From IMG/VR virus record IMGVR_UViG_3300031813_000005, positions 1-64,000 of that record: a stretch of DNA of 64,000 nt; one strand, 5' to 3'. The notes beneath the pieces were generated by a model that saw only the letters and a list, made by a program, of their open reading frames with translations, was not told the origin of the DNA and ran no database searches. The stretch comes from a virus (taxonomy: Duplodnaviria; Caudoviricetes). The position numbers and the translations under genes are program-made. This document shows, piece by piece, positions 54,250-58,042 of the stretch (positions within the stretch are counted from its first letter, which is position 1; each line of letters starts with the position of its first letter).

Positions 54250-55101
54250 TTAGTTATCGTCTCTCAATGAAGCGCGAAGAGTGTCCAAATCAGAAGGACT
54301 AAACTCTTCACTATCTGCTTCCTGCGAAGAAAGCTTCTTTGGTTTAGAAGAAGCCGTTGGGCTTACAACAGGTTCATCTACCTTTGGTTGGCTTGTAAAA
54401 CGAGCTACAAGTTCAGCCATCTTTTCCTCTGAAGGAGGAGTAATGATTGCGGTTAAATCGGGAGATACTTCAATTAGCTTATCCCAAATGTCCTTACCCT
54501 TTTTGCCAGTAAAAGCAGGTTCTGGGTCCTGAAACTGCCAAGTAGTAGCAACTATAGTTCCCTTACCGGCTGGCTTCAAGAGTTCACAATTTCTACCGCT
54601 ATCAAAATCTACGAAATCCTTTTCCTTGCTCATAATGGAAACAATACCTTCCATAGAAGCTTTAGACGAGGCACGAACGATCTTCACAGACTCTTCTGTG
54701 ATGTTAGAAGTATCGAGCTTATCTACCTCATAACCTACTAACAAATAATTTTGCTTAACTACCAACTGCTTAAAAGCTTCCTTGTAAGCTGGGTCTTCGG
54801 TGGCCGTAAACTTTCTATAAGAGTTGGAAGCTAACTCGCAGAATGGACACTTTCTTCCATCGCCGGCCTTTTGGGGACAAGCGAAACTTTCAAATCTACC
54901 GTCTGGAAAATTGACAGCATGGTGATTGTAAATCTCAACAGGAAGTTCAAAATCCTTTGACTTTAGAGGTAGAAACCTTAAAGTATGTGTAGCTCCTGGA
55001 GAGGGTTTAAACCAATAAGGACCAGTCTTCGCTGACTTTTGGTTTGACTTTTCGAGTATTTCCTTGAAAAGATTAAAATTCGTTTTCTTAATTTCTGCCA
55101 T
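54250..55101 (-). CDS. Single-stranded DNA-binding protein (T4 gp32-like)
   Basis: WFKP...LRFLP, H...CP...CPFCE Zn site, D..SGR, acidic C-tail. Start at MAEIKK (AAGGA RBS). Confidence 0.85.
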   Translation of the reverse strand: MAEIKKTNFNLFKEILEKSNQKSAKTGPYWFKPSPGATHTLRFLPLKSKDFELPVEIYNHHAVNFPDGRFESFACPQKAGDGRKCPFCELASNSYRKFTATEDPAYKEAFKQLVVKQNYLLVGYEVDKLDTSNITEESVKIVRASSKASMEGIVSIMSKEKDFVDFDSGRNCELLKPAGKGTIVATTWQFQDPEPAFTGKKGKDIWDKLIEVSPDLTAIITPPSEEKMAELVARFTSQPKVDEPVVSPTASSKPKKLSSQEADSEEFSPSDLDTLRASLRDDN

Positions 55102-55253
55102 TTGGCGTTCCTTTATATGAAGGCTGGAGATTTCCAGCAAAAGACCCGATATATTGGTATCAGGTAAGTAATAATTCCGTGTGAAGTTTAATTCGCCTCG
55201 GTAAATATATATCGGATATGCGGGTCAGACTGGAAATGAAAAGTTCAAAAAGT

Positions 55254-55270
55254 TTGGCACGATTATTGCT
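55254..55270 (+). promoter_or_regulatory. sigma54 (RpoN) -24/-12 promoter
   Basis: TTGGCACGATTATTGCT matches YTGGCACGRNNNTTGCW with GG-N10-GC spacing; predicted +1 about 55281, 11 nt before ATG 55292. Confidence 0.7.
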
Positions 55271-55291
55271 AATATAAATAATAAAGTATAT

Positions 55292-56416
55292 ATGATAATA
55301 ACCAGCTCTCCTAAAAATAAACTCCTATTAGGAGACAATAATAAAAAAATCAATAAAAGATTACTATCAACTGTTGATATTAATAATAGTATACTGGTAA
55401 TAGATTTTACTTACTACTGTTCTCTAATAGCTAACAAACTAAAATATAGTAGCTCTTTTGGCGAAAAATGGTCCGACCTGGTTGGCTCGAGCGACAGGCT
55501 TCGTGCGCTACAAGCAGTTGATGATATCTTCGAACCGATTTTGAGCATTAAACGCCTTGTAGAAATAAAAAATCTGGTGCTTCTAACCAAACCAACAAAA
55601 GATTTTTCAATTTTTGAAAAAGAGCTGTTTAAAGTTTTCTCTGGTATAATAAGTTATTATATAGAAACAACAAATAAAGTATCTTCTTTATATTCTATAG
55701 CCGTTCAAGAAAAACAAAAATATATTATACTTACAGATGATGTTAGTTTTTGGTCTATTTGTAGTCAAAAATCAAAGATTTGTTTTTGTACTGTTATTAA
55801 AAATAATAAAGTTAGATTTTATTTTGATAAGTTTGGGTTAGAATACCTTTCAAGCCTAATCCAAACAAACAAAATTGTTAATAAACTACGCCTCAGTAAA
55901 TTAAAATATGTTAATCTCCAGTATTTGTTTTTACTGTTATTATATGTAAAGTTTAAACAAGTTAAAATGAAAGAAGAACTTGATATTTCAGATAAGCAAT
56001 TTTTAGGTGCGAAAGGAAAAGCTTTACAGTTATTAACAACAGCACATAAAGAGATATCTTATTATTTTCTGACTAAACCTGATATAATGGAAATATTCTT
56101 AACAAGTTCTATAACGCACTTCACTCTTAATTTAAGCAGATTAAAGAAATTAACACAATTTGATATTACTTTACTCTCTGGTTTTGCTGCTTACTACAAT
56201 TATAGTAAAATAACACAAATAGATGTAATCAAAACCAAACCAAAAACTGTTTATTATAAGCTCATAGAACATTCAAAGTTATTTTGTTTTCAAGACATAG
56301 AGAAACCAGAAAAAAATAAAAAAGTCTCTCTGCCACAAGAACCAATTCAATCCGATATATCTTCGCTGGAGACTTCTCTGGCTGTTAATCAAATTTTAAA
56401 GGATTTAGCATGGTAA
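55292..56416 (+). CDS. Hypothetical protein; possible inactive 5'-nuclease paralog
   Basis: 374 aa, basic; ILVIDF and YIILTDDVSFWSI segments echo FEN motifs. Confidence 0.65.
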   Translation: MIITSSPKNKLLLGDNNKKINKRLLSTVDINNSILVIDFTYYCSLIANKLKYSSSFGEKWSDLVGSSDRLRALQAVDDIFEPILSIKRLVEIKNLVLLTKPTKDFSIFEKELFKVFSGIISYYIETTNKVSSLYSIAVQEKQKYIILTDDVSFWSICSQKSKICFCTVIKNNKVRFYFDKFGLEYLSSLIQTNKIVNKLRLSKLKYVNLQYLFLLLLYVKFKQVKMKEELDISDKQFLGAKGKALQLLTTAHKEISYYFLTKPDIMEIFLTSSITHFTLNLSRLKKLTQFDITLLSGFAAYYNYSKITQIDVIKTKPKTVYYKLIEHSKLFCFQDIEKPEKNKKVSLPQEPIQSDISSLETSLAVNQILKDLAW

Positions 56417-57459: not shown

Positions 57460-58042
57460 ACCGATATACAATTCGGAGGCTTTTATGCTCGAAAGACGAA
57501 GTACATATGGCGTAGTTGACGCTATTGTTGGCATGAGCGCTGTTAAGCGTTTCCATGGCCGAAACACTATTAAACAACAAACATTAGCTGACCATAGTGG
57601 TCGAGTTGCTCAAATTGCGTTCTTTTTAGCCCTTGAGTTTTATGAGGGAGACTATTCAAAAGTTAACTATGTAGCTACTCTTGGTTTGTTCCATGATTTA
57701 CCAGAAAGTTTACTTGAATGTGATATTCCAACACCTGTAAAGCTCCAAAAAGGAATTGGGCCAAAACTTAAACAAATAGAAACAGAAGCTGTTAAAAGGA
57801 TATTTCCAGACAGCCCATATCTCCAAAACTTAGCTATGGAAGTAGCATCAGAAGACGATTTTAGTTTAATGAAGCTGGCAGACCTACTCGATTTAGGTTT
57901 ATATATTTGGGAAGAAAAACAACTTGGAAACAAATCTTTAGATCCACTGTTGGAAATGTTTTTTCATTTATTTGATAGTTATCCAACTGTTTATAGGGAT
58001 TTAGCGTTTGCTCAAGCGTGTAGAGTAAAGATAGCGAGTTAA
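57446..58042 (+). CDS. HD-domain nucleotide phosphohydrolase (YfbR/DatZ-like)
   Basis: KRF...QTLADHS, FHDLPE...DIPTPVK and KLAD motifs; start uncertain (57446 or 57485). Confidence 0.85.
   Translation: MNRVKPIYNSEAFMLERRSTYGVVDAIVGMSAVKRFHGRNTIKQQTLADHSGRVAQIAFFLALEFYEGDYSKVNYVATLGLFHDLPESLLECDIPTPVKLQKGIGPKLKQIETEAVKRIFPDSPYLQNLAMEVASEDDFSLMKLADLLDLGLYIWEEKQLGNKSLDPLLEMFFHLFDSYPTVYRDLAFAQACRVKIAS

Follow-up and report, generated by a model that had tools for sequence, protein, structure and literature searches.

We find that a sigma-54 (RpoN/SigL)-type -24/-12 promoter element lies just upstream of, and co-oriented with, the first gene of the rightward replication block in an uncultured T4-like phage of virulent type, as a preliminary description of this DNA had proposed, and that it is kept at the orthologous place in six relatives. 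The element is a match to the sigma-54 consensus and is not a chance occurrence. To the reading that it is a host RpoN/SigL-dependent, activator-gated promoter for a FEN/RNase-H-like nuclease gene, which is the first gene of the block, we give about an even chance.

The window, meaning the whole 64-kb stretch of DNA analyzed here, is the first half of one 127,104-bp IMG/VR virus record with 34% G+C and a completeness of 56% (CheckV), which would put the full genome at approximately 225 kb; 5% of the record is non-coding. The record carries a virion module with a contractile tail (major head, portal, large terminase and sheath). Genes for a gp32-like single-strand-binding protein and a UvsX-like recombinase occupy the minus strand, and a plus-strand block of approximately 25 kb starts at 55292 and holds the exonuclease, HD phosphohydrolase and primase genes along with further replication and nucleotide genes. 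A DNA search of GenBank phages with 4 kb around the site gave no match, and because the UvsX-like and capsid proteins are <31% identical to those of any cultured (GenBank) phage, no cultured relative or host was found. The features around the strand switch, in window coordinates, are:

54250-55101, minus strand: gene for the gp32-like single-strand DNA-binding protein (Pfam gp32, E 2.9e-6; phrog_1192).
55123-55138, minus strand: hairpin in the gp32 leader, GCTGGA-GATT-TCCAGC; the minus-strand ATG at 55101 follows after 22 nt.
55144-55165, minus strand: another conserved hairpin in the leftward leader, with a U-rich run behind it; a terminator-like match on the minus strand.
55146-55153, plus strand: rightward CCGATATA box, class-2 -10-like, 145 nt before the ATG at 55292.
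55208-55215, minus strand: leftward CCGATATA box, with ATATCG invariant in 7 sequences.
55254-55270, plus strand: sigma-54 (RpoN/SigL)-type -24/-12 element, TTGGCACGATTATTGCT; GG at 55256-57 and GC at 55268-69, with 10 nt between.
55279-55283, plus strand: predicted transcription start, from the -24/-12 geometry, approximately 12 nt after the GC.
55292-56416, plus strand: first gene of the rightward replication block, 374 aa; the exonuclease gene starts within its 3′ end, at 56410.
56353-56359, plus strand: internal CGATATA box, a putative promoter box, 57 nt before the exonuclease gene.

The position of the element, its exact GG-N10-GC spacing and the ATG at 55292 are all as first described. 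Every position of YTGGCACGrNNNTTGCW is matched, and the element stands in non-coding DNA and ends 22 nt upstream of the start codon of the nearby gene toward which it points. The window contains the exact pattern TGGCAC-N5-TTGCW a single time, compared with an average of 0.05 in shuffled windows (5 of 100 shuffles had a match). An earlier by-hand estimate had given well under one chance match per window. It had also been noted that other TGGCAC sites lack a correctly spaced -12 half; consistent with this, the sole one-mismatch match in the window falls inside the uvsX-like gene. The window has this one sigma-54 promoter-like site only. Across the whole record there are three sites with at most one mismatch (55254, 124991 and 125012), all of them non-coding, and the identical 15-16-mer has its second occurrence outside the window, on the minus strand at record positions 125012-125026.

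Relatives were retrieved via UvsX, gp32, the 374-aa protein and alignments, from IMG/VR (L047, L048 and L060) and from metagenomes (L183, L184 and L188); an IMG/VR scan with the 374-aa protein alone had returned none. These six fragments come from different metagenomes, and their downstream protein is 58-83% and their gp32 77-80% identical to those of the window. The preliminary description had looked to related phages for conservation of the motif, and in an alignment (A4) of seven orthologous intergenic regions, the window included, all six relatives carry it with its consensus positions invariant: no other stretch of the intergenic region stays unchanged for as long as TTTGGCACG, and the T and the TTGCT that come after it are likewise the same in all 7 sequences. 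Change is confined to the four degenerate spacer positions, three of which vary (ATTA, ATTT, ATTC, GTTC or GATC), and to the flanks, which have indels of 7-17 nt. Indels in the AT-rich stretch also account for the variable distance from TTGC to ATG (22, 22, 29, 29, 34 or 39 nt). Each relative fragment (12-36 kb) has only one such site. A more distant relative (L187 = L189, 51% identity) keeps the leader hairpins and lacks the element, with other sequence at the same place before the same gene, which makes the element a trait of a single clade. The alignment shows purifying selection with exactly the sigma-54 pattern; a -35 hexamer or a structured RNA would be expected to leave a different one.

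The 374-aa protein had no match in Pfam or PHROG. An AlphaFold2 model built from seven sequences reached a pLDDT of 61.5, with residues 30-150 above 80, and the top Foldseek matches of this model all belong to the FEN family (plastid exonuclease 1, T5 D15, FEN1/GEN1, Pol I 5′ nuclease domains and T4 RNase H), with E-values from 8e-5 and TM scores of only 0.25-0.36. The predicted fold tentatively suggests that the protein is probably a FEN-type 5′-3′ exonuclease, a nuclease resembling T4 RNase H.

The favored reading, that of a gated promoter, runs as follows. Host RNA polymerase-sigma-54 holoenzyme would read the element and fire rightward from approximately 55281 into the nuclease gene, having bound as a closed complex that would await an AAA+ enhancer-binding activator. 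This activator could be a host protein or a phage protein from the missing 44% of the genome. Because the exonuclease gene overlaps the 374-aa gene, transcription would run on into the exonuclease gene, and expression of the first gene and its read-through would be conditional on the signaling or metabolic state of the host. The remaining replication block would run from the phage's own CGATATA-type promoters.

These CGATATA-type boxes stand 11-145 nt before approximately 15 co-oriented genes of early type or for DNA metabolism, usually with a Shine-Dalgarno sequence next. They lie at 55147, 55214 (minus strand), 56353, 57462 and 61120 in the window and at 72212, 75717, 76314, 83583, 97079, 112976, 114310, 116717 and 122206 in the rest of the record. 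From their sequence and placement, we take them to be a promoter class of the phage that resembles the sigma-28/SigD -10 element. The leftward box at 55208-55215 is the probable promoter of the gp32-uvsX transcript, to judge by its invariant core. The internal box at 56353-56359 would make the downstream genes independent of the sigma-54 site, and the box at 57462 precedes the HD and primase genes. A second motif, the octamer AATTAA[ACG]T (AATTAAVT), occurs 54 times in the record where approximately one is expected, and fits a late-promoter class.

Two proposals of the preliminary description have to be revised in this light. At most, sigma-54 could gate the first gene of the replication operon together with its read-through. 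A co-oriented putative promoter of CGATATA type stands before each of the exonuclease, HD/primase and later genes, so that the replication block as a whole would not be sigma-54-gated. The three-tier program with a sigma-54 tier is not borne out, since the window contains a single promoter-like site and the only addition is a face-to-face pair at a distance of 70 kb. The boxes also weigh against the gated-promoter reading itself, in that the CCGATATA box at 55146-55153, 145 nt upstream, could already serve the 374-aa gene. Its promoter role is uncertain because it overlaps an arm of the 55144-55165 hairpin, and in the distant relative L187 the hairpin is kept and the CCGATATA box is absent from this place.

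The palindrome at 55123-55138 is present where the preliminary description had placed it, and was proposed there as an enhancer site. Its arms covary in relatives (GCTAGG/CCTAGC in L047 and GCTGAG/CTCAGC in L187), and it is located in the gp32 leader, on the other strand. These compensatory arms and the position 22 nt before the gp32 start indicate that the palindrome forms a hairpin in the leader of the oppositely directed transcript (RNA folding energy -9.0 kcal/mol, z -3.7) and speak against an enhancer. The second hairpin, at 55144-55165, shows the compensatory change ACTCGATA/TATCGAGT in L188, and its wobble pairs favor the minus-strand RNA. T4 gene 32 has a translational operator in its leader, which the hairpins of the gp32 leader recall, and by this analogy the hairpins in 55123-55165 may be a translational or attenuation operator. 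In the relative G006, an extra minus-strand ORF (L060:660-1310) is present between the gp32 gene and the leader hairpin and occupies the position of gp32 directly behind the hairpin; from its sequence, our guess is that the inserted ORF is a gene of homing-endonuclease type.

Sigma-54 cannot open DNA without an activator. Within the 127-kb record, which is 56% complete, we found no match to the AAA+ activator domain PF00158 and no GAFTGA loop, and likewise no RpoN (PF04552) and no RpoN box; the missing activator counts against the promoter reading. PF00158 matched in 14 of 14 control genomes, so that AAA+ matches of this kind are unspecific, and the AAA+ matches in three unrelated site-rich jumbo contigs all lack GAFTGA. 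A further point against a sigma-54 promoter is the predicted leader of approximately 10 nt, which has no Shine-Dalgarno sequence.

We also compared the element with T4 middle promoters (MotA box plus sigma-70 -10, with AsiA), which likewise precede replication and recombination genes in a T4-like genome. T4 middle promoters head replication genes and act as origin promoters, and the TTGCT core of the phage element resembles the MotA box TGCTT. Unlike in T4 middle promoters, conservation in the phage spans TGGCACG and the distance to a -10 hexamer is not conserved. MotA (PF09114) is absent from the incomplete 127-kb record.

The closest likenesses of the element were met in bacteria. A blastn search for CRISPR spacers, with 20 kb of the window as query and 388 genomes from one Bacillota family (GTDB) as database, gave no spacer-like perfect match. 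Of the approximately 150 short matches listed, 9 stack exactly on 55247-55293 and are 91-94% identical across 31-36 nt. We inspected five of these places, and the strict motif is present in four of the five, L199 being without it. The neighboring genes at the four are:

L195: after the site, a GH4 glycosidase gene.
L196: before the site, a Sigma54_activat protein gene; after it, serine dehydratase.
L197: before the site, a LevR-type regulator (PRD + EIIA); after it, PTS EIIA-man.
L198: before the site, a LevR-type regulator (PRD + EIIA); after it, PTS EIIB.

These neighborhoods are textbook sigma-54 contexts, the LevR/PRD type being that of the Bacillus subtilis levanase operon. Bacillota promoters of LevR/PRD PTS and catabolic genes have the same GG-N10-GC core and extended consensus as the phage element, and in LevR/PRD-type promoters, as in the phage, the core is preceded by A-rich and followed by TA-rich sequence. 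With the same core and similar flanks, the phage element is indistinguishable in sequence from working sigma-54 promoters of AT-rich Bacillota. It differs from the Bacillota promoters in its setting, since it belongs to a T4-like phage of virulent type and precedes a gene for a putative DNA-replication nuclease, with neither an adjacent activator gene nor a recognizable upstream activator site. The leaders differ as well: those of the Bacillota examples are 45-80 nt long with a strong Shine-Dalgarno sequence, whereas that of the phage would be approximately 10 nt without a ribosome-binding site. The Bacillota family has approximately 18 half-sites per genome compared with approximately 1 for a reversed control, and rpoN in 32 of 41 sampled genomes; its sites mostly read TGGCAT, whereas the phage clade always has TGGCAC, which counts against the sigma-54 promoter reading.

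These look-alike promoters give, together with two other observations, a weak hint of a Bacillota host. One is that the 51% relative was binned in the MAG "Bacillota bacterium BP8.bin49", which belongs to this family and carries rpoN (the coverage of the relative is 1.3x and the motif is absent from it). The other is the CCGATAT sequence, which we take to resemble the SigD/sigma-28 -10 element. Against such a host, a Shine-Dalgarno core precedes only approximately 35-44% of the phage genes, versus 3.5% at control codons, and usage of approximately 40% is low for a Bacillota phage; the prevalence of TGGCAT among the sites of the family likewise speaks against it. Other searches for host clues gave no tRNA genes in the phage and no match in a hemerythrin scan of bacterial genomes. 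A 30-nt blastn against cultured phages yielded noise only.

The second copy of the element bears on what its first copy does. It is one half of a pair of sigma-54-type sites at record positions 124991-125026 (L036:6992-7027), in which TGGCATGGTCTTTGC on the plus strand at 124991-125005 faces the minus-strand site at 125012-125026, with 6 nt between the cores. The TGGCATGGTCTTTGC arm has one mismatch, and the minus-strand arm is identical to the 15-16-mer of the window. The pair lies in a repeat-rich gap of 631 bp, approximately 250 nt before a 205-codon gene, and folds at -21 kcal/mol on the plus strand. An Rfam search of the 125-kb region gave no match, and no relatives of the genes flanking the paired site were found.

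Similar sites occur in other virus records. The exact 17-mer is present in 35 IMG/VR stretches, and three unrelated jumbo records (G001:21925-33708, G002:81450-97024 and G003:195145-205119) have clusters of 4-8 co-oriented perfect sites within 12-16 kb. A start codon follows each of these sites at 30-45 nt, and the leaders are A-rich and lack a Shine-Dalgarno sequence. Face-to-face pairs with their -12 ends 3-6 nt apart are found in more than 120 IMG/VR stretches among the matches listed, compared with approximately one by chance (a rough estimate), in records of 30-68% G+C and often in tandem arrays that repeat every 41-67 nt. No face-to-face pair turned up in 301 Bacillota genomes from the family above, where approximately 5,000 half-sites are expected. 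We considered and rejected hairpins as a general account of the paired sites: the spacers of the two arms are not complementary, which places the symmetry in the recognition (protein-contact) positions. A reading of the pairs as ordinary divergent promoters is not supported, given that the orientations of the flanking genes have no divergent bias (crude ORF calls).

The pair leads to an alternative in which the element at 55254-55270 is not a promoter but a docking site, where the holoenzyme or free sigma-54 would sit as a stable closed complex. Such a complex might modulate read-through from the upstream CCGATATA promoter, mark an origin-like strand switch, or tie up host sigma-54. We regard docking as unlikely. 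It would explain why no activator gene was found in the record, and it draws on the paired arrangement of the other copy, in which each site lies on the melting region of its partner; this second copy hints at docking and counts against a firing role. The abundance of pairs in virus records and their absence from the 301 Bacillota genomes, the non-complementary arm spacers with symmetry in protein-contact positions, and the location of the window's site at the minimum of the cumulative GC skew also agree with docking. The site itself looks otherwise: it is single, correctly oriented and at a typical promoter distance before a start codon, and a very AT-rich stretch follows it as in the bacterial promoters that it resembles. 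In addition, the 51% relative has other sequence in its place, as expected if one promoter had been replaced by another.

The paired symmetric form, present in the same genome and in many virus records and missing from the bacterial genomes searched, could also be explained by a phage-encoded DNA-binding protein for which the element is an operator, bound by a dimer at the pair and by a monomer or as a half-site here, with the likeness to sigma-54 promoters convergent or irrelevant. That sigma-54 machinery was not found in the record is in keeping with such a protein. We consider this account distinctly unlikely, as it needs an accidental match at all 12 sigma-54 consensus positions, with variation only where sigma-54 tolerates it. 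The occurrence of the motif in virus records of 30-68% GC argues for one universally conserved reader rather than many phage-specific proteins, and both the flanks and the core resemble host sigma-54 promoters.

Very unlikely, in our estimate, is a housekeeping sigma-70/SigA promoter, with TTGGCA as -35, a 17-nt spacer, AATAAT as -10 and a start almost at the ATG. A consensus scan scores this arrangement at 10 of 12, and most relatives have TAATAT or AATAAT 16-18 nt after TTGGCA. The downstream DNA is almost pure A/T, however, so that -10-like hexamers are expected anywhere, and in L060 an acceptable -10 is missing at 15-18 nt. Under this reading CACG and TTGCT, both invariant, would be part of an unconstrained spacer, which leaves the spacer more conserved than the hexamers, and the second copy at 125 kb has no -10. 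Finally, a chance match in AT-rich non-coding DNA, as five of the 100 shuffled windows produced once each, is negligible as an explanation and is refuted by the conservation in six relatives, with the second identical copy in the same genome also against it.

The common view is that lytic phages depend on the housekeeping sigma factor, on sigma factors of their own or on their own polymerases. Sigma-54 promoters give no transcript before an ATP-driven activator has responded to a signal, so that a phage gene behind such a promoter would be tied to the physiological state of its host. Such gating would obey a different logic from that of T4, whose early, middle and late genes run on a fixed clock. 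In literature searches we found no paper on sigma-54 promoters inside virulent phage genomes. If the element is the gated promoter that we favor, the 374-aa gene is probably wired to a host signaling route in this phage and in at least six relatives. The conserved site at the head of the replication block is a clean test case that can be mutated, and the paired form, which is specific to viruses, suggests that simple promoter use is not the whole story. We therefore put forward a broader idea, possible but in our view more probably wrong than right, that host sigma-54 sites serve this phage, and many unrelated uncultured phages as well, in two ways, as a conditional promoter of a nuclease gene and as a virus-specific docking or trapping pair (124991-125026). 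Were this dual use true, phage-host control would involve sigma-54 as a handle that is exploited widely and has so far gone undescribed.

A minor observation concerns the 205-codon gene that follows the paired site (record 125254-125871; L036:7255-7872). Its protein is of low complexity, folds poorly and has no family match, and the gene has a strong Shine-Dalgarno sequence and a G+C content of up to 59%. Such a composition in a phage of 34% G+C, along with the missing family match, suggests that the gene is probably a recent acquisition.
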